From a virus (Duplodnaviria; Caudoviricetes): a stretch of 32,154 nucleotides of DNA. A model generated the notes under the pieces. The model saw only the letters and a list, made by a program, of their open reading frames with translations. It had not been told where the DNA came from and searched no databases. Below are positions 60-31,625 of this stretch, piece after piece; within the stretch, counting starts at the first letter, position 1; each line of letters opens with the position of its first letter. The position numbers and the translations under genes were made by a program. Where the stretch lies: IMG/VR virus record IMGVR_UViG_3300017766_002486, positions 1-32,154 of that record. One strand, written 5' to 3'.

Positions 60-524
60 TCATGTGCCGCGGACACGGCGCAAACCGCTCTCCATGCGTG
101 TGCGAAAGCAGGCTACTTGCTGCACCACCGATACACGGGAGCAGCCGAGTAGTTTTGATATTTGTTTGTGCGTCAGCTTGGAGCCGATTCCTAGGCCGAT
201 ACGGACCACCTCTGCCTGCCCACGTAGCACCGGGCAGCGCTTGCCTCCGATCGTGTCGAGCACGACAGCCAGGACGGTGAGCACCTCGTCCCTGGTATAG
301 GTCGACGGCCTCACTGTCGCGTCGGCTCCTTCGGTCTGTCTGATACGGAAGCAGGCGCGTGCCTCATCCAGCTCCATGACTGTATCACCTGAACGGGGTA
401 GCTCGCGGTAAGGGCGGAAGCCGTTGGCCCTAGCCCGGGCCTGAGCCTTGGGGGATAGGGAGTCGAAGTGAGCATCGACGGCGCGTTGATGCTCTAGCGG
501 GATGTTGTCCTGAGTCTCGGCCAC
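60..524 (-). CDS. putative DNA-binding regulator with C-terminal sigma70 region 4-like HTH
   Basis: 154 aa ORF, GTG start. The C-terminal segment VVRIGLGIGSKLTHKQISKLLGCSRVSVVQQV resembles a sigma-r4/HTH. It would lie just upstream of terS if the genome is circularised. Confidence 0.5.
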   Translation of the reverse strand: MAETQDNIPLEHQRAVDAHFDSLSPKAQARARANGFRPYRELPRSGDTVMELDEARACFRIRQTEGADATVRPSTYTRDEVLTVLAVVLDTIGGKRCPVLRGQAEVVRIGLGIGSKLTHKQISKLLGCSRVSVVQQVACFRTRMESGLRRVRGT

Positions 525-3489: not shown

Positions 3490-3498
3490 GTGCGGGAT
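3490..3498 (-). promoter_or_regulatory. ATCCCGCAC box before primase start
   Basis: Minus strand reads GCCATCCCGCACCCT-ATG. Confidence 0.6.
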
Positions 3499-3869: not shown

Positions 3870-5239
3870 TTCTTCTGGCGTGCCTTGAACACGTTGTGAG
3901 CCCAGCCGTAAGGGTTCTTCATGCCGCGAGCCTTGCCGACTCTGATCAGGTCCTCCAGGGATTGCGCCGTGCCTTGCTCCCGCTTGCGCTGCCGAACGGC
4001 CTCGCGGGCCTTCAGCTCTTCGAGCTCGCCATCGACCACGTCAGGGATGCGGTCCTTGATTTCGTAGACGTGCAAGCACTGCGGACAGGTCGGGCTTGGG
4101 GTATGGACGGCGAAGCACTCCGGGCATTGGCGGGTGTCGGCCACGTCGTCCTGCGGTCCGCGCTTGGCTCGGCGCTTGATGCCGTCGAGCGACCAGTCGC
4201 GAACCTCTTCGGCGAGGCCGTGCCGCCTGCAGTTGCCCACGTGGTCTAGGATGACGGCGCGGGGCTTGTTCGGTGCTGGCCTGAGCACTCGACCGATCTG
4301 CTGGAGGTGCAGGGACAGTGACGCGGTAGGGCGTAGCAGGATGGCCACGGCCACGCAGGGCAGGTCGAAGCCCTCTGACACGATGTCCACTGAGACGAGG
4401 CCGTGCAGCTGACCCGAGCCCAGGGCGGCTACGCGGGCGGCGCGTTCCTCCTTGGCGAGCGTGCCGTCGATGACCTTGAAGCGATAGCCTGATGCGTTGA
4501 ACGCGGCGGCCACGTTCTCGGCGTGCTTTATTCCTGTGCAGAATACGATGCAGGGCTGGCCCTCGGCATACTTGCGGTAATGGGTGACAGCGTCGCCGGT
4601 GATGGTCGGCTTGTCCATACGCTCGGCGACCTCGGCGCGGTTGAAGTCTCCGGCCACCTTATGCACGCCCTCCATGCTTACGGTCTTGGGCGCGTAATAC
4701 ACTGGTTTACATAAGTAGCCATCCTCTATGAGTTTTGTAACCTCGGGCCCACGGATCAGGTCGTCGAACACTTGGCCGAGGCCCTTGCCGTCGAGCCGTG
4801 CCGGTGTCGCGGTGACGCCGAGCACGCGGGCTTGCGGCCACTGAGCCAGCACCGAAGCCCATGCGCCTGCCGTGGCGTGGTGAGCCTCGTCGATTACGAT
4901 CAGGTCGGGCGGCACGACGCGGTCGAACCTGCGGACGAGCGTCTGCACGCTGGCGACCTGCGTCAGTTGGTTGCGGTCAGGCGTGAGGCCGGCGGCGATG
5001 AGGCCGTGCGGCACGTCCATGGACGCGAGCGAGCGGTGGCACTGCTCCAGGAGTTCGGCGCGGTGGACGAGGATGAGCGTGCGGTTGCCCTTGGCCGCAG
5101 CTGAGGCCGTCACGTAGGAGAACATGACGGTCTTACCCGAGCCGGTGGGGGCGACGAGCAGGGGCTTGCGGCGGCCTGCTCGGAAGGCTTCGCGGACTTG
5201 GTCAACGGCGGACTGCTGGTATGGACGGAGAGGGAACAC
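3866..5239 (-). CDS. SF2 DEAD/DEAH-box helicase with C-terminal Zn ribbon
   Basis: LRPYQ, APTGSGKT, IDEAHH, TATP, SEGFDLP and QQIGRVLR motifs, plus CPEC...CPQC. Confidence 0.92.
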   Translation of the reverse strand: MFPLRPYQQSAVDQVREAFRAGRRKPLLVAPTGSGKTVMFSYVTASAAAKGNRTLILVHRAELLEQCHRSLASMDVPHGLIAAGLTPDRNQLTQVASVQTLVRRFDRVVPPDLIVIDEAHHATAGAWASVLAQWPQARVLGVTATPARLDGKGLGQVFDDLIRGPEVTKLIEDGYLCKPVYYAPKTVSMEGVHKVAGDFNRAEVAERMDKPTITGDAVTHYRKYAEGQPCIVFCTGIKHAENVAAAFNASGYRFKVIDGTLAKEERAARVAALGSGQLHGLVSVDIVSEGFDLPCVAVAILLRPTASLSLHLQQIGRVLRPAPNKPRAVILDHVGNCRRHGLAEEVRDWSLDGIKRRAKRGPQDDVADTRQCPECFAVHTPSPTCPQCLHVYEIKDRIPDVVDGELEELKAREAVRQRKREQGTAQSLEDLIRVGKARGMKNPYGWAHNVFKARQKK

Positions 5240-5349
5240 GTGCGGGAATAGGGGGACAATGGGTCGTTATAACTGGGGGTAAAGATTTATAACGCTTTGT
5301 GGTTTACAGCGGAAGACGGCCCGCCAGTGTGACCGAGCAATCCCGCACC
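5240..5349. promoter_or_regulatory. divergent promoter/control region
   Basis: AT-richer intergenic region between divergent operons. TTTACA-N16-CAGTGT points right (5303-5330) and TTTACC-N16-CATTGT points left. Inverted repeat CGTTATAA/TTATAACG at 5265-5272/5287-5294. TCCCGCAC boxes sit at both ends (5240-5247 minus, 5341-5348 plus). Confidence 0.6.
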
Positions 5350-5463
5350 ATGAAACTAATCGCCTACCTCCTAATCGCGCTGGCCATCGGCTATGCGCTC
5401 GCCGTGTTCCTCGACCCGTCCTTCCCGGACCTGCTCGAGATCATCGACAACCCCAAGTTCTAA
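5350..5463 (+). CDS. small single-pass membrane protein (37 aa, not in ORF track)
   Basis: Translated by hand: MKLIAYLLIALAIGYALAVFLDPSFPDLLEIIDNPKF*. It is preceded by ATCCCGCACC and is the first gene of the rightward operon. Confidence 0.65.
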   Translation: MKLIAYLLIALAIGYALAVFLDPSFPDLLEIIDNPKF

Positions 5464-5467
5464 TCCC

Positions 5468-5770
5468 ATGAGCAAGAAACCCACCATCCCCCAGCCGCGT
5501 CACCGCGACGACATCGGACGCAACGCCCTGGTCAACCTGCTGGAGAACATCGACGGTGCCCAGATTATGAAGGACGCCGGCAAGCCGCAGGAGGAAGTCA
5601 TCGGCTACGTCGAGACCGCCATCGCGGACTTCAAGGCCACGCCGGGCATCTCCTGCGACGGCGGTGCTATCTTCTTCGGCATCACGCTCGGGCGCATCAC
5701 GCTCGACGTGACCTTCAGCGACGCCTCGGGCGAGGTGTCCATCACCTACATGGCCAAGCGCCGCGACTAA
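5468..5770 (+). CDS. hypothetical protein (100 aa)
   Basis: Start MSKKPTIPQ lies 4 nt after the previous stop, with C-rich third positions like its neighbours. Confidence 0.7.
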   Translation: MSKKPTIPQPRHRDDIGRNALVNLLENIDGAQIMKDAGKPQEEVIGYVETAIADFKATPGISCDGGAIFFGITLGRITLDVTFSDASGEVSITYMAKRRD

Positions 5771-5780
5771 TCTCCCGCAC

Positions 5781-6077
5781 ATGAAACCCAAGAACATCGA
5801 CGACGCAGGCCGTCTTGAAGCCTGCAAAGAACTGATCATCGAACACCGCAAGAAGGCCGGAGCCCGGGCAACCTACGAGCTCTACGGCATCCTGTTCGGA
5901 AAGAAGGTCGAACTCGACCGCGTGGACCACGCGCCGACCTCGGCTGACTTCGCCGGCATGATCGGCAAGAAGCGCATCGCCTCGCTGTTCACGGCCTACG
6001 ACATGGTCGTGGAGTTCCGTGGCAACTGGAAGACCGACGCCGAGGCTAAGGTTGTCGCGTGGGAGGCTGCTCAGTAA
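5781..6077 (+). CDS. hypothetical protein (98 aa)
   Basis: ORF preceded by TCCCGCAC and tightly packed in the operon. Confidence 0.7.
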   Translation: MKPKNIDDAGRLEACKELIIEHRKKAGARATYELYGILFGKKVELDRVDHAPTSADFAGMIGKKRIASLFTAYDMVVEFRGNWKTDAEAKVVAWEAAQ

Positions 6078-6081
6078 GACC

Positions 6082-6384
6082 ATGCGTCCTGTCACGTCCA
6101 ACGAGGTGGCCGCCATCAAGATGCGCCACTACTACGCGGCCAACAAGGAGAAGCTGAAGGCCCGGGCTTATGCCTGGCGTGCCGCCAACCGCGAGAAGTA
6201 TATCTCCTACCAGAAGGCTTACGCAAAGGCTCACGCGGATCGGCACAAGGCCGCCTTGGCCGCTTACTACCAGCGCAACAAGGAAGTCCTGAAGGCCAAG
6301 GCCAAGGCTTGGCAGAAGGCCAACCCCGACAAGGTCCGAGGCTACTACCTCGCCCGCAAGGCCCGCCTCTCCACCCATGCCTGA
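6082..6384 (+). CDS. basic helical repeat protein resembling the N-terminal arm of phage HNH endonucleases, no nuclease domain
   Basis: Repeats YYAANKEKLKA, WRAANREKY, YYQRNKEVLKA and WQKANPDKV. ATG at 6082 follows the stop at 6077. Confidence 0.6.
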   Translation: MRPVTSNEVAAIKMRHYYAANKEKLKARAYAWRAANREKYISYQKAYAKAHADRHKAALAAYYQRNKEVLKAKAKAWQKANPDKVRGYYLARKARLSTHA

Positions 6385-6706
6385 CCCCCTAGCCCATCAT
6401 CCCTCCATGCTCATCATCCGACCCGACTCACTCCCCCGCCTCTGGTGGCTGTTCCCCTGGAGCATGGCCCGTCAGCTGCACAAGAACGCCGTCGCCATCC
6501 GCGAGATGGCCGACAACCAGTCCACGACCATCACCAATCAGGCCAAAATCCTTGGCCGATACATGGATGAGAACCGCGAACTGAAGGCCGAGGTCACCCG
6601 CCTCGCCCACTCCCGCGAGCATTGGATCGCCAAGCACGACCGGGCCTACGCCGTCGCCATGCACAACGAGCGAGTCATCCTTGAGATGGAGAACCGCAGC
6701 CGATGA
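6377..6706 (+). CDS. hypothetical coiled-coil protein
   Basis: 109 aa ORF with overlapping start/stop junctions to its neighbours. Confidence 0.6.
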   Translation: MPDPLAHHPSMLIIRPDSLPRLWWLFPWSMARQLHKNAVAIREMADNQSTTITNQAKILGRYMDENRELKAEVTRLAHSREHWIAKHDRAYAVAMHNERVILEMENRSR

Positions 6707-6909
6707 ACCTCACCCACCACCAGATGGCCACGCGGCACATGGCCACCGAGGTCGAGCACATCAACCGCCTGATCTATACGAAGGACCTTTCCGTGGCCAA
6801 GGCCAAGGTGATGCTGGCCGACGCGGCCCATGCCGCCCGTCAGCACTGCCCGGACTGCACCATCAAGTTCGGCATCAACGCGGGGAGGGCTTGGTTCAAC
6901 GTGCTATGA
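6703..6909 (+). CDS. hypothetical protein (68 aa)
   Basis: ATGA overlaps on both sides. Confidence 0.6.
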   Translation: MNLTHHQMATRHMATEVEHINRLIYTKDLSVAKAKVMLADAAHAARQHCPDCTIKFGINAGRAWFNVL

Positions 6910-7142
6910 GTGACATAGACCGCACGCGGATGATACCCCTGCACATCGCCGACCAGGCTGTGGCGGCCTGCGACGCGGAGATCGCGAAGCTGAGGGAGGA
7001 AGTCCATCGGCTCCGCACCGCCGGGGACGGCCTATACAAGTCCATGCTGGAAATCGGATGCAACGAGATGGCCGACAACTTTCAGTATGACGCATGGCGG
7101 GATTCGATGAAGGCATGGAAGGAGACCAACCCCCATGCCTAA
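6906..7142 (+). CDS. hypothetical protein (78 aa)
   Basis: Start MSDIDRTRM at an ATGA overlap. It is the 3' part of track ORF 6681..7142. Confidence 0.6.
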   Translation: MSDIDRTRMIPLHIADQAVAACDAEIAKLREEVHRLRTAGDGLYKSMLEIGCNEMADNFQYDAWRDSMKAWKETNPHA

Positions 7143-7287
7143 GCAGAAGCGCCGCCCCGAGCGTAGCCGTCCCGGCCTCAAGCAACTCACCCCCGCCGAG
7201 CGTCGCATCGTCGAGGAGCGTATCGCCGATCATAAGAAGCGCTGGGAATACCTGTTCAGCATCAACCTCTGGAAGCCCAGCAAATGA
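7135..7287 (+). CDS. small basic hypothetical protein (50 aa, not in ORF track)
   Basis: MPKQKRRPERSRPGLKQLTPAERRIVEERIADHKKRWEYLFSINLWKPSK* fills the gap exactly, with overlaps at both ends. Confidence 0.6.
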   Translation: MPKQKRRPERSRPGLKQLTPAERRIVEERIADHKKRWEYLFSINLWKPSK

Positions 7288-7637
7288 CCACGCCATACAA
7301 CCCGCGCTCAGGCATCGGCGAACTGCACGACCTCATCGACAAGTTCGTGCCGGTCCGTGAGGCCGCGCTCCAGGAGCACTACATGAAGGCCGCCGAGACG
7401 CGCGCGCTCCTGAAGTCTCTCGGGTGCTGGCCGACCGACAAGCGCAAGCCAGTCGAGCCTAGGGGCAAGAAGCCGAAGGCCGGCAAACTTGCCAGCGAGC
7501 TAGGCCGCGAGGCTTACCACTGGGCGCACGCCAATAACGCCACCTACACCGAGGCCGCCGAACGCTTCCGCATCGACGCGAACTCAATCCACTCCTACCG
7601 CCAATACCGCAAACTCCCTAAACTCCGCACCAAATGA
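7284..7637 (+). CDS. hypothetical protein with probable C-terminal HTH
   Basis: ATYTEAAERFRIDANSIHSY resembles an HTH; ATGA overlaps. Confidence 0.55.
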   Translation: MTTPYNPRSGIGELHDLIDKFVPVREAALQEHYMKAAETRALLKSLGCWPTDKRKPVEPRGKKPKAGKLASELGREAYHWAHANNATYTEAAERFRIDANSIHSYRQYRKLPKLRTK

Positions 7638-7861
7638 ACAACCTCCCAGACTACGACGAAATCACCCGGCTACGGCTCCGCCTTGCCGAGGTCGAACTCC
7701 AGCGCGACGCCTTCAAGGCCATGGCCGACAAGGCCGTGACTGACCTGATCCGTCAGGTCATGGACCGCGAACGCTGGCAGGTCGGACTCCCCGGCGTATC
7801 GACCTACACCTACGCCCCGACCGAGCAGCCGAAACCCGCCAAGCGTAAGCGCCGTGGCTGA
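7634..7861 (+). CDS. hypothetical protein (75 aa)
   Basis: Coupled ORF with a coiled-coil-like N-terminus, preceded by CTCCGCACCAA. Confidence 0.6.
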   Translation: MNNLPDYDEITRLRLRLAEVELQRDAFKAMADKAVTDLIRQVMDRERWQVGLPGVSTYTYAPTEQPKPAKRKRRG

Positions 7862-8111
7862 GCACGAACTGACGGTCACCCACAAGGGTTCCGAGTATCA
7901 GGTCATCCTGGACGGCTCGGCCATGTATGTGGACGACTCTTTCGACCATGAGTTCGGGACCGAGCAGCGCGGCCACTGGGAACTCGACTGGGACGAGACC
8001 GAAATCGTGGCGGTCCTTAACGACATCGGCGAAGAGATTGACCCCGACGACGTGCCCGGGCTGGTCCTTGCCATCAGAGACGCATCTAATGACATCGAAA
8101 TCGAGGGCTAA
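7854..8111 (+). CDS. highly acidic small protein
   Basis: 85 aa, about 24 D/E versus 3 K/R by hand count. The GTG start overlaps the previous gene. Confidence 0.65.
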   Translation: MAEHELTVTHKGSEYQVILDGSAMYVDDSFDHEFGTEQRGHWELDWDETEIVAVLNDIGEEIDPDDVPGLVLAIRDASNDIEIEG

Positions 8112-8421
8112 CTACGGACTAGTCAAGGCCGCCGTGATCGCCACGGCCTCCCCGCAGCTGACGGTCGAACAGGTGGCCACCCTTACCGGGCATAACCTGC
8201 GCTCGGTCCGTTGCGCCATCAAGCACCTCGGCCTGCCTGCCTTACGTGAGCGCCGCCCCAAGGGGTCCATCAAGGACCTCGTCCTAGCCGGCCATAACCA
8301 GGGGATGACCGTCCCGCAACTGGCCGAGACCAGCGGGGTTTCCCGTTATACCCTTTACGCTACCTACAGGCGTCTCGGCCTGACCCCCTGCGTGGCTCGC
8401 CAAGGCCGTTCGACCCCATGA
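8089..8421 (+). CDS. tandem HTH DNA-binding protein (110 aa)
   Basis: Two similar units, LTVEQVATLTGHNLRSVRCAIKHLGL and MTVPQLAETSGVSRYTLYATYRRLGL. Likely start MTSKSRAN at 8089. Confidence 0.6.
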   Translation: MTSKSRANYGLVKAAVIATASPQLTVEQVATLTGHNLRSVRCAIKHLGLPALRERRPKGSIKDLVLAGHNQGMTVPQLAETSGVSRYTLYATYRRLGLTPCVARQGRSTP

Positions 8422-8891
8422 CCCTAGTCCTAGCCCTCTCCGCCGCCCTGCTGACCTCTGAGGCCATCCCAGAGCAGACCCTACAGGCTGTCGAACAGGT
8501 CGAGTCCTCGGGCCGTGGGGCGTCCACCCCTCGGGGCGATGGCGGCAAGGCCCTCGGCTGCCTTCAGTGGCACGCCGTAGCGTGGAAGGACTGCTCGGCC
8601 ATCAGGCGCAAGGTTGGGCTGGCGGTCTATCCCTATGCCGACGCGGCTGTGCCGGCCAAGGCCCGCGACTACGCTCGCACCTGGCTGACGGTCCTGAAGG
8701 TCAGGCTCGCCGGCGAGATCGGGCGGCAGCCTTACCCCGGGGAAATCTGGCTGGCTTGGAACCTAGGCTGGTCGGGCTACGCTCGCTACGGTTTCAGCTG
8801 GGCGTATGTCCCCCGCGTCAAGTTCGACAAGGCGCGGCAGGTGAACACGCTGGCTTGGGGCTTGCCAAAACGCCCTGCCGTCGCAAGGTAA
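8418..8891 (+). CDS. lysozyme-like / lytic transglycosylase with N-terminal signal peptide (candidate endolysin)
   Basis: Catalytic Glu motif AVEQVESSG, then GDGGKALGCLQW and LAWNLG (SLT/lysozyme-fold motifs). Hydrophobic N-terminus MTLVLALSAALLTSEA. Confidence 0.7.
   Translation: MTLVLALSAALLTSEAIPEQTLQAVEQVESSGRGASTPRGDGGKALGCLQWHAVAWKDCSAIRRKVGLAVYPYADAAVPAKARDYARTWLTVLKVRLAGEIGRQPYPGEIWLAWNLGWSGYARYGFSWAYVPRVKFDKARQVNTLAWGLPKRPAVAR
8862..8889 (+). promoter_or_regulatory. putative promoter for the small RNA
   Basis: TTGCCA-N16-CAAGGT, the same geometry as the two promoter-like elements in 5240-5349. The predicted start at ~8896 coincides with the 5' end of the stem. Confidence 0.45.
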
Positions 8892-8895
8892 CAGG

Positions 8896-8977
8896 CGAGG
8901 CCCGGACAAAATCAATTGTGCGGGATCGCAACTGAGGGCAGTTCGGGCCTCGGGCCATCCGCAAGGGTGGCCCTTAT
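8896..8977 (+). ncRNA. candidate structured antisense small RNA (~80 nt)
   Basis: Outer stem CGAGGCCCGGAC/GTTCGGGCCTCG (8896-8907/8941-8952). Inner hairpin TCAATTGTG-CGGGAT-CGCAACTGA (8912-8935). 3' hairpin GGGCCATCC-GCAA-GGGTGGCCC. It contains the reverse complement of the ATCCCGCAC start-codon box. Confidence 0.6.
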
Positions 8978-8983
8978 GCTTTA
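8952..8983. terminator. GC-rich hairpin between convergent operons (likely terminator)
   Basis: 9-bp stem with GCAA tetraloop followed by TTATGCTTTA on the plus strand. It abuts the stop codon of the convergent gene; the U-tract is weak. Confidence 0.55.
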
Positions 8984-9468
8984 TACAAGCGGTCGAGGTC
9001 GGCCTTCAGGTAGTAAGCGTTCAGGTGCAGGCCGATGATACCGCGAGGGGTCTTCCAATACTTCGGCTTAAGCCCTGCCCGGGCGACCCGGCCACGCACG
9101 GCCACGTCCGAGACGTTCTTGCTGACCGCGTAATCGACCAGGCGCACCCAGCCCTTGGGGACTTTGTCGGATCGGTGGGCGAACATCTGAGCGGCGGCCT
9201 CCTTGATGGACTTATACGGAGGGACCGGGCGGTAGACGTAGGCCATGTGGCACTGGCCTGTGCCTGACTTGAACTGATGGGGCTGGCGTTCGAGCAGGCC
9301 ACGGCGCTGCAGGTCGAGCGCACGGGAGGATGCGTTGCGCGTGTGCGCCATATCGAGCTCGACGCGGATCTGCTCGACAGTGAACCAGCCCTTGGGGCAG
9401 GGGTAGTCCTTGGGCTCGTTGCTCAGTTCCTTGAGCAGGCGCTGCACGATTGAGTTTGAGTCGGTCAT
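8974..9468 (-). CDS. hypothetical basic protein, possible winged-helix DNA-binding
   Basis: Start MTDSNSIVQ at an ATGA overlap. Internal repeat PKGWFTVEQI / PKGWVRLVDY, each followed by HTH-like segments. Confidence 0.55.
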   Translation of the reverse strand: MTDSNSIVQRLLKELSNEPKDYPCPKGWFTVEQIRVELDMAHTRNASSRALDLQRRGLLERQPHQFKSGTGQCHMAYVYRPVPPYKSIKEAAAQMFAHRSDKVPKGWVRLVDYAVSKNVSDVAVRGRVARAGLKPKYWKTPRGIIGLHLNAYYLKADLDRLYKA

Positions 9469-10211
9469 ACGGATAAGCGCCAAGGCTGGCCGGACATCTC
9501 CAGCGGGTGGATGTAGAGACTAGGCTGGATGCCCGTGTCGCAATACTCGCCATACGCGATGGCCTGCCCCCAGGACAGGGTCTTGCGTCGGCCCTTGGCG
9601 TAGTCGCTTGAGCCCCGCAGCTTGAGCGTGCCGACGTTGATGCCGATCGTGCGGCGGGAGTTACGGGCTAGGGCTATGCCAGGGGAATGGGTATGGCCGA
9701 AGAAGACCGCGTCCGCTTCGACATACATTTCCGCCATGTCCCGAGGCGCTGACTCGTTGTAAATCGTGCCGTGAGTGAACAGCCCCGTGCCGAGCATATA
9801 CTTCTGGAAGACCCCGGTGTAGGGGACGTGGTCGGCCTTCAGCTTCTGGACGGTCTGCTCGATGTCGTGCTTCAGGTATTGGCTCAGCTCGGCCACGACC
9901 TCGTTCTTGGAATGGGTCAGCCGCCAGATGCGGTCCTCGTGGTTTCCGTTGATGACCACATTGAACTCTCCGTCCTCAAGGAAGCGGACGCCACCGGCGA
10001 TGTCAGGGGCGAGGGGTTCGCCATGGCCGGCGCCGCCACCCATCAGGGCCTCGACATCTACGAAGTCCCCGAGGTGGATGCGCTTCGCTCCTGGGCCTTT
10101 GCAGAAGTCGCCCATGAACTTGAGCACGGACTCCCGCGCCACCGGGTCGATGTGATGCCCATGAGAGCAGGACACCGCCGCGAACCGCTTCCACTTCCGG
10201 GTGATGTTCAT
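9465..10211 (-). CDS. calcineurin-like metallophosphoesterase
   Basis: Motifs SCSHG, HLGDFVD, GNHEDR, THG and GHTH. Start MNITRKW at an ATGA overlap. Confidence 0.85.
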   Translation of the reverse strand: MNITRKWKRFAAVSCSHGHHIDPVARESVLKFMGDFCKGPGAKRIHLGDFVDVEALMGGGAGHGEPLAPDIAGGVRFLEDGEFNVVINGNHEDRIWRLTHSKNEVVAELSQYLKHDIEQTVQKLKADHVPYTGVFQKYMLGTGLFTHGTIYNESAPRDMAEMYVEADAVFFGHTHSPGIALARNSRRTIGINVGTLKLRGSSDYAKGRRKTLSWGQAIAYGEYCDTGIQPSLYIHPLEMSGQPWRLSV

Positions 10212-11328: not shown

Positions 11329-11585
11329 TTGCGGGAAAGCCTGTAGCCTTGTGCCCATAATACCCGGGCAATGTAGCGCGCGCGGATGGTGACCTTGCGC
11401 TCGCTGTCAGACCATGCGGCTAGGTGCAGCGCTTCGTGGATCGTAGTCTCAAGCAAAAGGAATGGAGGCAACCTGCGATCCAGCAGGATTGTGTTGGTCT
11501 TCTTGTCTGCAAGGCCGTCGAGGTCGCTGGACAACGGAAGACGAAGCACCTTCGGCAGTGGCTTCAGCTTGGCCTTGCGTCCCAT
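11325..11585 (-). CDS. small protein with HExxH (zincin-like) motif
   Basis: DGLAD...ILLD...LETTIHEALH pattern of minimal phage zincin-like proteins. Confidence 0.55.
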   Translation of the reverse strand: MGRKAKLKPLPKVLRLPLSSDLDGLADKKTNTILLDRRLPPFLLLETTIHEALHLAAWSDSERKVTIRARYIARVLWAQGYRLSRK

Positions 11586-11680: not shown

Positions 11681-12466
11681 CTAAATGTCGATGGGTTCGT
11701 CGCCGGCGGGGGCGGCCTCGGGTTCGGTGGCCTTGGCCTTCTTGACCAGGTCCTTCACGGCTTCGGCAGCGGGCTGGACCGGCTGGCCTTCGACCGTGCG
11801 CTGGCCATACTCGGCCTCGTTGTCCTTGCGGATGGCTTCCTGCACGTCACGCGGCAGGCGGGGGAGCCACTTGGCAAGGCGCTTAAAGGCGGTCTTCTTC
11901 CACATCTCCATCGGGTAGGTGGCCCAAGGGCCGGACGAGCCGGAGCGGCTGGCCTTACGGATGGCCTCGACCTCGGCCTTGCTCATCTGGATCGCGGCGG
12001 TTTCCCCGTCCTTGAAGCGGACCATGGCGTAGACCGCGTAGGCTTCGCCCCGGTCCTTGGACAGGTCCACGACGTGCTCTTCGACCTTGCCCAGGTTGAA
12101 CCGATACTTGTCATTCTGGCAGACGATGTCGGCGTGGATGTGGGCGACTTCGCCCGATCGCATGACGAGCGCGAGGATGCCCTTGTAGTCGAACTGCAGG
12201 GTGGCGTCGTTGCCGTAGGGGATGAGGTGGGCGTGGTGGCCGTCAGGCATCAGACCCCACTGTGCGGCCTGCAGGATGACCGAGGCGACGGACTCCTTGG
12301 TGCAGTCCCAGAGCTTGGGGTTCTTGTTGCACGCGGTGATCACGCAGCGCATGAAGCGGCTGGCGTCGTCGGCGTTCGGCAGGGCCTTGGCGACCTGCTC
12401 CTGGAGTCCGGCGGAGCGGACGAGTTCGATGGTGTTCTTCGGGGGGAGTGCGGGTGTGTTGCTCAT
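11681..12466 (-). CDS. recT: RecT-family single-strand annealing recombinase
   Basis: NPKLWDCTKESV, AAQWGLMPD, AHLIPYG, QFDYKGILALVMRSG, GPWATYPMEMWKKTAFKRLAKWLP. Confidence 0.93.
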   Translation of the reverse strand: MSNTPALPPKNTIELVRSAGLQEQVAKALPNADDASRFMRCVITACNKNPKLWDCTKESVASVILQAAQWGLMPDGHHAHLIPYGNDATLQFDYKGILALVMRSGEVAHIHADIVCQNDKYRFNLGKVEEHVVDLSKDRGEAYAVYAMVRFKDGETAAIQMSKAEVEAIRKASRSGSSGPWATYPMEMWKKTAFKRLAKWLPRLPRDVQEAIRKDNEAEYGQRTVEGQPVQPAAEAVKDLVKKAKATEPEAAPAGDEPIDI

Positions 12467-13262: not shown

Positions 13263-13290
13263 GTGCGGGGGGAATTGGTAATACGTTGTT

Positions 13291-14179: not shown

Positions 14180-14225
14180 TTGTGCGGGATAGGCAAGGTA
14201 TGCCCGCCCTAGGGGTAGCCGTCAA
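14180..14225 (-). promoter_or_regulatory. putative promoter and ATCCCGCACAA box upstream of the ligase-recombination operon
   Basis: TTGACG on the minus strand at 14225-14220. The -10 is ambiguous (CATACC at 17 nt or TACCTT at 19 nt). The box is at 14180-14190. Confidence 0.5.
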
Positions 14226-14273
14226 GCCCCAAGGGTCAGGTGTCTAGGATGCCCTAGGAAGGGGGCTTAGGGG

Positions 14274-19078: not shown

Positions 19079-19106
19079 GGCTACTTATTGTGCAAATGGT
19101 AGGGTT
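19079..19106 (-). promoter_or_regulatory. late-gene bipartite motif copy 4
   Basis: AACCCTACC-ATTTGC-ACAATAAGTAGCC-ATG. Confidence 0.65.
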
Positions 19107-19110
19107 TAGG

Positions 19111-24087: not shown

Positions 24088-24112
24088 ATACTATTGCGGA
24101 TAAGGTAAGGTT
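24088..24112 (-). promoter_or_regulatory. late-gene bipartite motif copy 3
   Basis: AACCTTACC-TTATCC-GCAATAGTAT-ATG. Confidence 0.7.
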
Positions 24113-24548
24113 AGCCCTCGGGGTTCACGACCACCAGAATGTCATAGACTAGGACCGATGCCCAGGAGCGCTCGTTGACCCCTTCATCCTCGGACAGAGG
24201 GGTGATGTCGTAGCAGTGGGCGTCGCCTTGGGCGGTGAACACGTCCTGCAGCTCTTCGAGGTCCTGCATGGCGCCGGCAATGGCGGCCATCCGGGCACGG
24301 TGATCGGCTAGGGTCACGTCATCGGCAGAGTCCAGCAGGGTGACGCGGACCGAGCACGAGTAGTTGCCGAGGCCGTCCGGGAAGTCGTTAGGCAGGCGGG
24401 CGGAGTCGCAGAGCACGATGGCCTTGGGAAGCACGTTCGTGTCGGCGCTGTCGCCCGTGTAGATGTTGACCCCGGTCAGTTCGACCTGGGCGGTGAGGTA
24501 GGTAGCCACTGCGGCTTCCACGATATGGCGGGCGGATTTGGTTCCCAT
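24111..24548 (-). CDS. putative tail terminator/completion protein
   Basis: Start MGTKSARHIVEAAVATYL, acidic 145 aa; synteny. Confidence 0.55.
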   Translation of the reverse strand: MGTKSARHIVEAAVATYLTAQVELTGVNIYTGDSADTNVLPKAIVLCDSARLPNDFPDGLGNYSCSVRVTLLDSADDVTLADHRARMAAIAGAMQDLEELQDVFTAQGDAHCYDITPLSEDEGVNERSWASVLVYDILVVVNPEG

Positions 24549-27244: not shown

Positions 27245-27269
27245 ATACTATTGCGTAGGGGGTAAGGTT
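27245..27269 (-). promoter_or_regulatory. late-gene bipartite motif copy 2
   Basis: AACCTTACC-CCCTAC-GCAATAGTAT-ATG. Confidence 0.7.
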
Positions 27270-28071
27270 AAGCGGCCTGCTCGAAAGCGGCGAGGGCCTC
27301 GGCGAAGGAGGTGGCCAGACCCGTGACGAGGTTCTTGGCGGCGGCTTCCCGGCCAGAGAACACTTGGCCTTCCATGTCTTCGCGGCTGGCGAGCGAGCGC
27401 TTGCGGAGGACGGTCTGCTTGAACTCTTCATGCATGGCCTCGATGGACTTCTGCTCGAGCTCGCGCATCTCGTCGGTGTAGCCTTCGCCGGCGATGTTCG
27501 GGGCCTTGTATTTGCCCGCACGGAACACCTCGACCTTGAGGCCCATGTTCTTGAACGCTTCGTCGTAGGACTCGTCCACGGCGATCACACCTATGGAACC
27601 CACGACCGCCGACGGGCTTGCAATCACGTAGTCGCTCTGACTCCCGGTATAATATGCCCCGGAGGCCATGAGCTTCTTGGCGTAGGACATGGTCGGCAGC
27701 GGGATGCTGGCAATCTTGTCGGCGAGTTCGGGCGTGCCGACGACCGTGCCGCCAGGGGAATCAATCTCGAAGGCGATGCGCTGGACCGCAGGGTTGGCGA
27801 GGGCTTCGTCGATGTGCTCGCTAACTTCAGCCATGTCCATGGCCCCGGTCATCTTCTCGAACTTGGTCAGGCCGACGCCCAGGAAACCCTGGAGTGGGAT
27901 GACCGCCGTTCCGCCCTGCGTGACGTAGGGCTTCGCGACAGGGTTGAAGAACATATCCAGCACGCTGTCCACGACGCCGTATTTCTCGGCATACTTCATG
28001 TGGTTCGCGGCCTTGATAGGGTCGCAGAGAAGTGGCTCTCTTCCAGAGAGTCCGTTGATTAAGCATTTCAC
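27268..28071 (-). CDS. S49-family (SppA-like) prohead protease
   Basis: IDSPGG, MASGAYY, VGSIGV, AGKYK and GQVFSGREA motifs. Confidence 0.9.
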   Translation of the reverse strand: MKCLINGLSGREPLLCDPIKAANHMKYAEKYGVVDSVLDMFFNPVAKPYVTQGGTAVIPLQGFLGVGLTKFEKMTGAMDMAEVSEHIDEALANPAVQRIAFEIDSPGGTVVGTPELADKIASIPLPTMSYAKKLMASGAYYTGSQSDYVIASPSAVVGSIGVIAVDESYDEAFKNMGLKVEVFRAGKYKAPNIAGEGYTDEMRELEQKSIEAMHEEFKQTVLRKRSLASREDMEGQVFSGREAAAKNLVTGLATSFAEALAAFEQAA

Positions 28072-29788: not shown

Positions 29789-29814
29789 ATACTTATTGCG
29801 GGGCGGGTAAGGTT
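29789..29814 (-). promoter_or_regulatory. late-gene bipartite motif copy 1
   Basis: AACCTTACC-CGCCCC-GCAATAAGTAT-ATG, overlapping the terL 3' end. Confidence 0.7.
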
Positions 29815-31625
29815 TGCGGCTCGTCCCGACCGAGCAGGCCCCAGCGCGCCGCGATCAGCATCCCGAGAAGCTCGCAGTCGAAAGCATGGTTGTCGCGGAC
29901 TCCCTTCCGTAGTCGCCACATGGCCTTGCCCGCTTCCTTTATGCGGACCTCCGAGTTCAGCTGCTCGACATACCCGGGGTCGGCATCCCGGGCGAACGTG
30001 AACACCTTACGCGAGCGCATCCCGTGGAACAGGTCCTTGCCTGACAGATTGGACCAGACCACCAGCGCCGTCGGCGTGCGGATGCCAGGGACGTGGATGG
30101 CGGTCGGGGTGTTATAGAACCGCCGAACGGTGTCCCCGGCCTTCGTCTTGACATTGAAGTATTCCTGACCCGAACCCTTCGAGCAATACCAGCCACGGGT
30201 GGCGCACTGCTTGTAGACCGTCTGGGTCGTCGTGTCGGCGCCGCCAGAGTCCACCATGACGAGCTGAGGGTGGACGCCGTGCTTGACCGCCAGGGCGTCG
30301 AGGCCGGACCAATCGCCTAGGCCGTCCGTGCTCAGGACCTTGCCAAAGTAGACCAGCCGGCTGTGGCCCGTTCGTGCCCACTGCCTGACTACCACCCAGA
30401 AGTGGTCCATCTGACAGTCGATAGTCAGGCTGATGAACTTCACCGAGCCTTCGGGTGCGTCGTCCTTGTCCACGATCTGACCGCGCGGCGTGATGTAGCA
30501 GACCGCTTCCCATGGGTCGGCCATGGCGTAGTCCGAGGACTCGGTCGAGACGACCATGCTCCCCGTGCCGTCATCACTCCAGGGCAGAGCCAGATACTGG
30601 TTCTTGAAGAGCATACGCGGGGTCTGGTCTCCGACCAAGTCTGCGACCTGCTTGGCTTTTATCATGTCCACGGCCAAGGACCCCCAGCTCGTCGATGCCA
30701 ATGCGTTGACGTGTAGCCCGACGTAGCCGGCCTTCTCCGCCTTGGTCGTAGCCTCGAACCCGGCTCCACGCTCAACCTCGTTGCAAATCGTCCGCACCTC
30801 GTCGTTGTCCTCCATGCGGTGACGGCACTTCGAGCACTCGTAGGTCGTGCCCTGTTGCACCGCCTCAAGGTCCCAGCCGTCTACCATCTTGGCGCCTTCG
30901 GGGAAACGGATGTAGTCCCACAGCCAGGGCTGGCGGTGGTTGCACGAGGGACAGACGAACATCCATTCCCTCTGGTCGGTCATCAGGTAGAACTTCCAGA
31001 ACTCAGCGCCTTGCCCTTCGATGTCACCGGGCTGGCTCTCGTAGATCGCCTTGCTCGCGAACGCCGCAGCCTTCATGCGGCTCATGCTCATCGCCAATGC
31101 GCCGTTCGGCCACTGCCAGATTTCCGAGCCGAACACGTAGCGCACGTGCAACGACTGCAGGTGCTTCTCCGTCGAGGCCGAGCGGTTGTGAATCAGAGAG
31201 CCGTCCGCGAACCGCAACGTGCCCGACTTGTCGTTATCGTCCCCGGACATCTGAGAGCGGATGTCGGACACCTGGTCGAACAGCGGCCGCAGCTCGTTCA
31301 ACGTGAACGCCTTCGCCTTGTCCTGAGAGTCCAGGAAGATGGCCATCGACGCACGGCGGTTAGCCATCAGGTAAGTCGCGCAGAGTTTCAGCGTCAGCGT
31401 CTTCCCGCAGCCGATGGCCCAGGGCATGAACAGACGCGAGGTCGTCGGCGCGTTGAAGATACGGACGGCCTCACCGATCCACGGCCAGCGCTTCGGGTTG
31501 TAGCCTCCGTCAAACACGCCCGCCGGAATCTTCTTAACGTTCTCCTTCAGGTAAGCGACAGGGTCGCTCAAGGCCGACGGCCTGACCACGGCCAGCCCTT
31601 CCTCGAAGAGCTCGTCGGCGTTCAC
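29793..31625 (-). CDS. terL: terminase large subunit (lambda gpA family)
   Basis: Walker A-like AIGCGKT, TDQREW..CPSCNHRQ, YECSKC, TIDCQMDHFWVVVRQW, VMVDSG and DNHAFDC. Confidence 0.9.
   Translation of the reverse strand: MNADELFEEGLAVVRPSALSDPVAYLKENVKKIPAGVFDGGYNPKRWPWIGEAVRIFNAPTTSRLFMPWAIGCGKTLTLKLCATYLMANRRASMAIFLDSQDKAKAFTLNELRPLFDQVSDIRSQMSGDDNDKSGTLRFADGSLIHNRSASTEKHLQSLHVRYVFGSEIWQWPNGALAMSMSRMKAAAFASKAIYESQPGDIEGQGAEFWKFYLMTDQREWMFVCPSCNHRQPWLWDYIRFPEGAKMVDGWDLEAVQQGTTYECSKCRHRMEDNDEVRTICNEVERGAGFEATTKAEKAGYVGLHVNALASTSWGSLAVDMIKAKQVADLVGDQTPRMLFKNQYLALPWSDDGTGSMVVSTESSDYAMADPWEAVCYITPRGQIVDKDDAPEGSVKFISLTIDCQMDHFWVVVRQWARTGHSRLVYFGKVLSTDGLGDWSGLDALAVKHGVHPQLVMVDSGGADTTTQTVYKQCATRGWYCSKGSGQEYFNVKTKAGDTVRRFYNTPTAIHVPGIRTPTALVVWSNLSGKDLFHGMRSRKVFTFARDADPGYVEQLNSEVRIKEAGKAMWRLRKGVRDNHAFDCELLGMLIAARWGLLGRDEPQTLPAPQ

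Follow-up and report, generated by a model that had tools for sequence, protein, structure and literature searches.

The conserved structured feature that fills the gap between two convergent operons of this phage is real; it is a candidate small RNA (sRNA) of a family absent from Rfam, from GenBank phages and from the literature searched, and a variant of phage antisense regulation. Judging from sequence and its conservation in relatives, this sRNA probably acts in trans, pairing through a short seed with a phage-private box at the start codons of early genes, where it would block initiation and exert delayed feedback on replication. In the papers cited below, phage antisense RNAs (P4 CI, C4, sar, OOP) each control one gene or operon of their own phage; here, at least six unlinked replication and early-gene starts appear to be standardised on one tag and one RNA, in what appears to be a phage-built post-transcriptional regulon in a host group that seldom uses Shine-Dalgarno (SD) signals. 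The window (the whole stretch of DNA that was analysed) is a phage genome of 32,154 bp and 62% GC, estimated by CheckV as 92% complete; one relative's contig spans both of its ends, so little sequence is missing. Its genes include a primase, an SF2 helicase, a VRR-NUC protein, RecT, a DUF3799 exonuclease, an ATP-dependent ligase, a lambda-type portal and a GpA terminase.

A conserved structured RNA in the gap between convergent operons

The gap, correctly delimited in the first-pass annotation, lies between convergent stop codons (8892-8973, 82 nt). Its elements, and the predicted promoter that precedes them, are listed below with counts over homologues gathered via neighbouring proteins and DNA patterns, excluding one locus (L319) that is a possible duplicate of the window.

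8418..8891, plus strand: upstream ORF of 157 aa, whose 3′ end holds the promoter; its weakest homologue carries an SLT domain
8862..8867, plus strand: predicted -35 hexamer, in the last codons of the upstream ORF (TTGCCA 30, TTGCTA 3, TTGCGT 1; n = 34)
8884..8889, plus strand: predicted -10 hexamer CAnnnT (CAAGGT 21, CACGTT 9, CAAAGT 3, CTAACT 1; n = 34)
8897..8979, plus strand: candidate sRNA gene, ~80-88 nt with a U-rich tail, from folding and homologue comparison
8897..8951, plus strand: domain 1, an 11-bp closing stem (8897-8907 with 8941-8951), an internal loop and an inner hairpin
8916..8926, plus strand: seed UUGUGCGGGAU, the 5′ strand of the inner stem plus the hexaloop, identical in 33/33 distinct copies
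8933..8940, plus strand: purine-rich internal-loop strand (GAGGG 27, GAGGUG 3, GGGGG 2, GCAGG 1; n = 33)
8952..8984, plus strand: 9-bp GNRA hairpin (GCAA, 8952-8973) with a weak U tail, a predicted terminator

The fold proposed at first pass stands for the inner hairpin with its CGGGAU loop (8921-8926 in the plus-strand fold) and for the GCAA hairpin, and needs correction at the closing stem, which has 11 bp rather than 12 because a twelfth pair would compete with the next hairpin. For 8897-8979, the plus strand folds with a z-score of -6.6 and the minus strand with -4.4; 8862-8977 scores -4.9. Of 43 metagenome loci that contain the upstream gene, 42 yield the RNA with a covariance model, and the 43rd is truncated within the RNA by its contig end. 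Across 33 distinct copies, pairing is seen in 99.3% of 869 cells and both partners have changed in 6 of 28 pairs, in an alignment that was fitted to the structure and whose sequences are kin; controls with slid partners gave 30-52% pairing. By element, helix 1 is paired in 99.1% of cells (4 pairs changed on both sides, 4 on one) and the terminator hairpin in 100% (2 pairs changed on both sides). A gap-free tally, independent of the model, recovered stems of 9-12 bp and 9 bp in 15/15, each with 2-3 G-U pairs; RNAalifold on a plain MAFFT alignment, in which short variants were misaligned, missed the closing stem. Because G-U, G-C and A-U pairs replace one another and the loops are GNRA (30/30 complete loops), the plus strand is indicated. 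The single change within the inner hairpin falls on the seed's partner strand (CGCAA to CACAA), turning a U-G pair into U-A. A minus-strand TTG ORF at 8915, held out at first pass as an alternative user of this sequence, fails in that role, being 31-161 aa long or absent in relatives.

The TTGCCA-N16-CAAGGT element, from which a start at the first stem base had been predicted, is present as described, with a 16-nt spacing and the -10 hexamer 7 nt before that base (G8897). CAnnnT is kept in 33/34 variants and the spacing is fixed while spacer sequence and amino acids vary, in counts that are inflated by shared ancestry and for a hexamer whose last T is also the first base of the stop codon. Codons at the promoter are rare in this phage (TTG, 4.4% of Leu; CCA, 6.3% of Pro; GCA, 6.8% of Ala). 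A conserved promoter pattern of its own argues for the sRNA being a primary transcript, and since the ligase, primase, helicase and first rightward early gene have promoters of the same form, early synthesis by the host polymerase is predicted. The sRNA and ligase promoters also have in common a TTGGGGCTTG run that leads into the -35 (8855-8865 and 14223-14231). At the distal end, the hairpin at 8952..8984 is predicted to terminate both the sRNA and the rightward early operon. In four sequencing runs, 5-7% of the words from 5200-9600 were present, in every case on contigs of relatives. A 1133-nt metatranscriptome contig, from one study and without strand or start information, ends at 8982, that is, at the predicted terminator; a run that is probably DNA continues past it to 9046. 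We do not treat this single case as evidence of expression.

The first-pass annotation had not recognised a named family, and Rfam 15, which includes C4 and isrK, bears this out, with no family over threshold in the window (0 matches) and best scores for 8800-9050 of 15 and 11 bits, against gathering thresholds of 50 and 40. Among GenBank phages (50,697 records), no similar DNA was found beyond short terminator-like matches. By prediction and comparison, the element combines its own promoter and terminator, a conserved structure and a conserved accessible seed, the features of a trans-encoded sRNA. Protein sponges of the CsrB/RsmZ type carry multiple GGA hairpin loops; here there is a single GGA-containing loop and no Rfam match. 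The literature search returned no description of the RNA, which is also absent from the supplements searched of a survey of candidate structured RNAs of viruses (PMC10690425), whose other files may hold it.

A box complementary to the seed adjoins early-gene starts

The complement of the seed, CCCGCAC, stands 0-5 nt before early-gene starts and is the top start-associated 7-mer in the window (6/10 copies) and in most long loci of the clade. Exact copies of TCCCGCAC number six: five in sense orientation before starts and one in the RNA, which is indeed, as first noticed, the lone full copy placed otherwise. Copy number is only marginally above expectation (6 versus 2.0, a count that 3 of 100 shuffles reached), and allowing one mismatch gives 37 copies against 48 expected; what lies above chance is the position of the box and its conservation in relatives, rather than copy number. 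In the list below, box counts refer to distinct start regions with the box within 12 nt upstream.

3490..3497, minus strand: primase box (ATG 3486); 14/15; promoter TTGCCT-N17-CACCTT, pattern in 19/19
5240..5247, minus strand: SF2 helicase box, directly before the start (GTG 5239); 18/18; promoter TTTACC-N16-CATTGT, -10 pattern in 19/19
5341..5348, plus strand: box of the first rightward early gene (ATG 5350); 5/6; promoter TTTACA-N16-CAGTGT
5773..5780, plus strand: box of the 5781 gene, operon-internal, between the upstream stop and ATG 5781; 15/16; full promoter pattern in 0/15
11329..11336, minus strand: HNH box, imperfect (7 bp), a doubtful target at -4.0 kcal/mol
12448..12454, minus strand: RecT box inside codons 4-6, a possible weak site; 14/27 variants
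13263..13269, minus strand: RecE-like exonuclease (DUF3799) box, operon-internal (ATG 13262); 30/30; full promoter pattern in 0/30
14182..14189, minus strand: DNA ligase box (ATG 14178); 19/19; promoter TTGACG-N17-CATACC, pattern in 27/28

The initial claim of many targets thus holds for conserved boxes at many early starts; it does not extend to the HNH gene, which is not a core target, and RecT has the internal match listed and no box upstream. The sole primase exception reads CCCGCAT, which is G-U compatible. In relatives, the slot of the 5350 gene holds unrelated genes, and the box is present in 20/21 slot variants. Box-bearing genes form 15 ATG-starting protein clusters plus the GTG-starting helicase, many of them accessory genes swapped into one slot; since such genes may inherit the box by cassette exchange, the 16 clusters do not represent 16 independent gains. 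No box was found upstream of 15 other gene groups (0/15), and late genes are without it. As a separate observation, unrelated small early genes swap behind an identical promoter-plus-box or stop-plus-box cassette (5248-5780 in the window; L182, L188, L192 and L179), and the box may double as a recombination joint.

In the ligase, primase, helicase and 5350 genes, the -10 pattern lies 7-9 nt upstream and the box begins 1-3 nt after the predicted start site, so that the predicted 5′ UTR of these four genes is little more than the box; the promoter patterns were written after viewing the alignments, and their background rate of 0.2% is not an unbiased test. Because the boxes of the exonuclease and 5781 genes are operon-internal and have no promoter, we take the box to be tied to translation and not to transcription. 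A TAATCT before the 5781 box was considered as a leaderless -10 and rejected, the accompanying -35 occurring in 0/15.

Crude leaders of two putative host MAGs contained no box (0/62 and 0/69), and of 59 pattern matches in the host, none of the 29 inspected looks like a true start (0/29). A general host signal was accordingly rejected as an explanation of the box (0/131 putative host leaders). Complementarity of the box to helix 45 of the host 16S rRNA was likewise set aside: at that site the putative host genus has CCUGCGG in five genomes and GGUGCGG in one extra copy, in a comparison of genus relatives, the two putative host MAGs themselves being without 16S. In related phages lacking the RNA, the box occurs in 3/364 leaders. 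In one sister phage that lacks the RNA, CCCGCAC precedes a single early gene (L248:9615-9630, minus strand), a possible cross-target. The homologues are close kin, with helicases 82-97% identical.

Predicted pairing between the seed and the start boxes

The leader pairings proposed at first pass were all recovered. The ligase leader pairs over 11 + 4 bp and is the best predicted target (-10.6 kcal/mol), followed by the primase (9 + 2 bp, -8.5 kcal/mol), the 5781 gene (9 bp including the A of AUG, -7.9 kcal/mol), the 5350 gene (9 + 2 bp by inspection, -7.8 kcal/mol), the exonuclease (8 bp, -7.0 kcal/mol) and the helicase (8 bp plus one G-U, -6.9 kcal/mol), with the HNH gene at 7 bp. When all 46 start regions were ranked with opening costs included, a check suggested at first pass, box genes took six of the top seven places (the remaining one goes to a 7-bp site at the coding start of ORF 60-524), in a ranking that is partly circular and whose net energies are modest. 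Opening is calculated to cost 7.1 kcal/mol for the whole seed and 0.5 kcal/mol for the loop, and leader structure amounts to 0 to -1.2 kcal/mol in five of the six box genes; cofolding of the whole RNA was uninformative, as it cannot model pairing that begins in a loop. Two small hints are independent of this ranking, namely the G-U-compatible primase variant and the base facing the next A of the seed. That base is T in 86% of 37 boxes at starts and in 29% of 48 copies elsewhere, although the pyrimidine richness of leaders in this host group favours T at -1 as well.

Seed and box are both invariant in every homologue found, apart from the one G-U-compatible target variant. No clade with a changed seed emerged from 197 more distant loci scanned with the covariance model: 72 loci gave 0 hits, 61 gave 6 weak hits only (E ≥1.8), and 64 gave 5 weak hits (E 0.04-2.7), of which the four inspected were rejected as the reverse strand of an exonuclease ORF. 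Nor was a new seed seen with a seed-free hairpin pattern (19 viral loci). Two further candidates were discarded, namely a start box from a de-novo scan of distant loci (L059), which is a protein repeat, and CCCCAAC/CAACACC in sister phages, which look like general C/A-rich leaders and form no convincing second system.

Proposed mechanism and alternative explanations

We propose that host RNA polymerase would transcribe the sRNA from its early-type promoter, an alternative or additional source being the rightward early mRNA, whose 3′ end may release it. Pairing would nucleate between the CGGGAU loop and (A)UCCCG, and the weak inner stem would then open to give a duplex of 7-11 bp whose end lies 0-5 nt ahead of the start codon or on it. 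Once such a duplex had formed, leaders with little structure and no SD signal would no longer support initiation. A stable RNA co-expressed with its targets would accumulate, and the resulting delayed negative feedback would turn down the primase, helicase, ligase, exonuclease/RecT and first early genes toward the late phase; co-infecting kin with the same box would be damped as well. Repression as the direction of the effect, and its timing, are what we infer.

The same pairing could instead serve mainly immunity or a carrier state, in which a constitutive RNA from a resident, non-integrated genome would exclude kin by the logic of P4 CI. A host-type promoter, the presence of the first gene of four early transcripts among the targets and the lack of any CI-like family in 47 ORFs would all suit such a role, which we nevertheless consider unlikely: a six-frame search for tyrosine integrases, limited to that family, found none in 5 records (0/3 among those ≥90% complete), no partition gene appears among the Pfam matches, no host flank was identified on four MAG contigs, and the seed is identical across the clade, although immunity specificities usually diversify. 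The first-pass view of a phage with neither CI nor integrase agrees with the tyrosine-integrase search within those 5 records and must be amended for regulators, an HTH regulator gene being present at 8089-8421; with that gene and with no host-flanked prophage seen, the suggested repressor-free immunity is unsupported. Control by RNA only, also suggested, is likewise unsupported, given that regulator gene two genes upstream of the sRNA and the TTATAA-type repeats across the divergent early promoters.

Premature termination or nuclease cleavage, triggered by binding to nascent 5′ ends and replacing a block of initiation, is quite unlikely. Duplexes of 7-11 bp are short for RNase III, box spacing is tied to the AUG (0-5 nt), and the two operon-internal boxes still touch the start codon. 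The prediction that four boxes begin 1-3 nt after the start site does agree with this mode of action, as does the precedent of P4 CI, which, in the part of PMC4825925 that treats it, acts through termination.

Decidedly improbable is a reading in which a protein, such as the HTH protein encoded at 8089, binds the box as DNA or RNA, and the reverse copy is an extra operator within a terminator-like structure. Such a regulator gene is present and four boxes overlap predicted start sites, but the box is a single asymmetric 7-mer, always in sense orientation and adjoining a start, even at the exonuclease and 5781 genes, where no promoter pattern is found (0/30 and 0/15); an orientation-independent DNA operator, raised at first pass as a possible objection, fails on the same observation. 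Moreover, the structure that contains the reverse copy shows wobble changes on the plus strand and its 11-nt seed is invariant, and a decoy RNA would carry the sense sequence, not its complement.

The internal-loop strand is SD-like in 32/33 copies, and relatives of the putative host keep a CCUCC anti-SD yet seldom use SD signals. An RNA that docks on the box as a ribosome adaptor, offering its GAGG-type internal loop as a Shine-Dalgarno sequence in trans and so activating translation, is all the same very improbable, as in the exonuclease and 5781 leaders the duplex would take in the A of AUG, the polarity is reversed for an antiparallel adaptor, and the leaders have almost no structure to unmask. 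If it were true, the loop would engage the idle anti-SD of an SD-scarce Opitutia host and so give the phage's replication genes priority. Finally, a purely cis-acting 3′-UTR stabiliser and terminator of the rightward operon, with the loop match arising by chance, agrees with the position at the operon end and the terminator-like hairpin and is scarcely probable, since the stems drift while the seed is invariant, and box and RNA occur in the same clade with neither found enriched or detected outside it.

Comparison with known regulatory systems

As a start-box-pairing sRNA, which we regard as the probable function, the element has its closest layout match in the start-associated sequences (SAS) of Cluster K mycobacteriophages, which is an analogue and not a homologue. 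In the portion of Pope et al. (2011; PMC3203893) that concerns it, SAS is a private asymmetric start box with one reverse copy, and in the relevant sections of 2024-2025 papers (PMC11373665, PMC12699233) it is still ill-defined. Both boxes are asymmetric, phage-private and absent from the host, lie a few nt before non-structural starts in one orientation, and have a lone reverse copy; spacing here is 0-5 nt, before early genes only and with 0/131 putative host leaders carrying the box, compared with 3-7 nt for SAS. However, SAS is 13 bp long with an SD core, whereas the box here is 7-9 nt and SD-free (CCCGCAC), with no sequence homology between them, and Cluster K phages have a repressor and an integrase.

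Adephagia has 16 sense copies of SAS and one reverse copy; the latter makes up the apical loop of a long intergenic hairpin between genes 92 and 93 (L401:30660-30715; z -6.3). In Cluster K1, this hairpin sits within a conserved multi-hairpin intergenic segment of ~230-250 nt, after a terminator and a TTGAC-N-TAGACT promoter-like element; the Adephagia hairpin region is matched by 193 phage records, and no Rfam family passed threshold in the 12 loci of the segment scanned. Of 15 phages examined, 5 have the exact reverse loop, 4 have a pyrimidine-rich variant of it and 6 lack it. Pixie has 18 SAS copies and no reverse copy in the stretch examined. In Hammy the SAS consensus is retained but the loop is mismatched; loop and box are not strictly coupled in Cluster K. 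With its lone reverse copy in a hairpin loop, Adephagia nonetheless provides a concrete hypothesis for SAS that is testable in M. smegmatis.

P4 CI RNA, as described in the parts cited of PMC4825925 and PMC10111431, arises by processing of the transcript that it targets, pairs with seqA and seqC close by and causes termination. The candidate resembles it in being a small structured phage RNA with short pairings to phage transcripts and in turning down replication genes (here a prediction), and differs in its predicted targets, which comprise at least six start sites far from the RNA and on both strands. While the targets of P4 CI and P1 C4 flank the RNA in its own operon, the boxes here lie 3.1-5.4 kb away in separate transcription units. 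RNAs of the P4 CI and P1 C4 kind are cut from a precursor, work by termination or on an antirepressor, and belong to temperate elements that have an integrase or a plasmid prophage. Within the sections cited, P1/P7 C4 (PMC8201110), P22 sar and lambda OOP (PMC12197685) regulate the phage's own genes, with sar blocking translation initiation (PMC12197685); each acts on a single locus (gene or operon), upstream of a protein repressor circuit, and none is described there with a start box common to many unlinked genes. The prophage RNA DicF, which the same part of PMC12197685 describes as having host mRNA targets and using Hfq, is similar in applying one short seed to several mRNAs and in ending with a terminator hairpin. 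Unlike DicF, the predicted targets here are the phage's own and carry one exact box, and 0/29 inspected host sites look like true starts.

Host, regulators and late genes

The host is probably a member of the Opitutia, an assignment that follows from MAG binning and leader style, no host flank having been found. The predicted capsid gene occurs on four MAG contigs, two labelled Verrucomicrobiota and one of these Opitutia; on all four, matches to the window are phage genes. SD-poor, pyrimidine-rich leaders are common to the phage and the Opitutia MAG, SD sequences occurring in 1.6% and 8.7% of leaders of two putative host MAGs. The part cited of PMC10783764 lists some Verrucomicrobia among SD-scarce taxa.

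8089..8421, plus strand: HTH DNA-binding protein, candidate regulator (Pfam HTH_23; PHROG 323, D5-like regulator)

Two (G/T)TTATAAC near-palindromes (5266-5273 and 5286-5293) overlap the divergent early promoters, are partly conserved in relatives and are candidate protein operators. Four structural genes are preceded by the motif AACCTTACC-N7-CGCAATA(A)GTAT-ATG (27245-27275, 24088-24115, 29789-29820 and 19079-19110, minus strand), a candidate phage late promoter. The first codons of ORF 60-524 (minus strand) contain a 7-bp seed match that is kept in 10/11 variants but codes for conserved residues. The product of this ORF has a C-terminal HTH-like stretch, for which sigma-region-4 look-alikes score only 0.78, and as a lead we note it as a candidate late activator.
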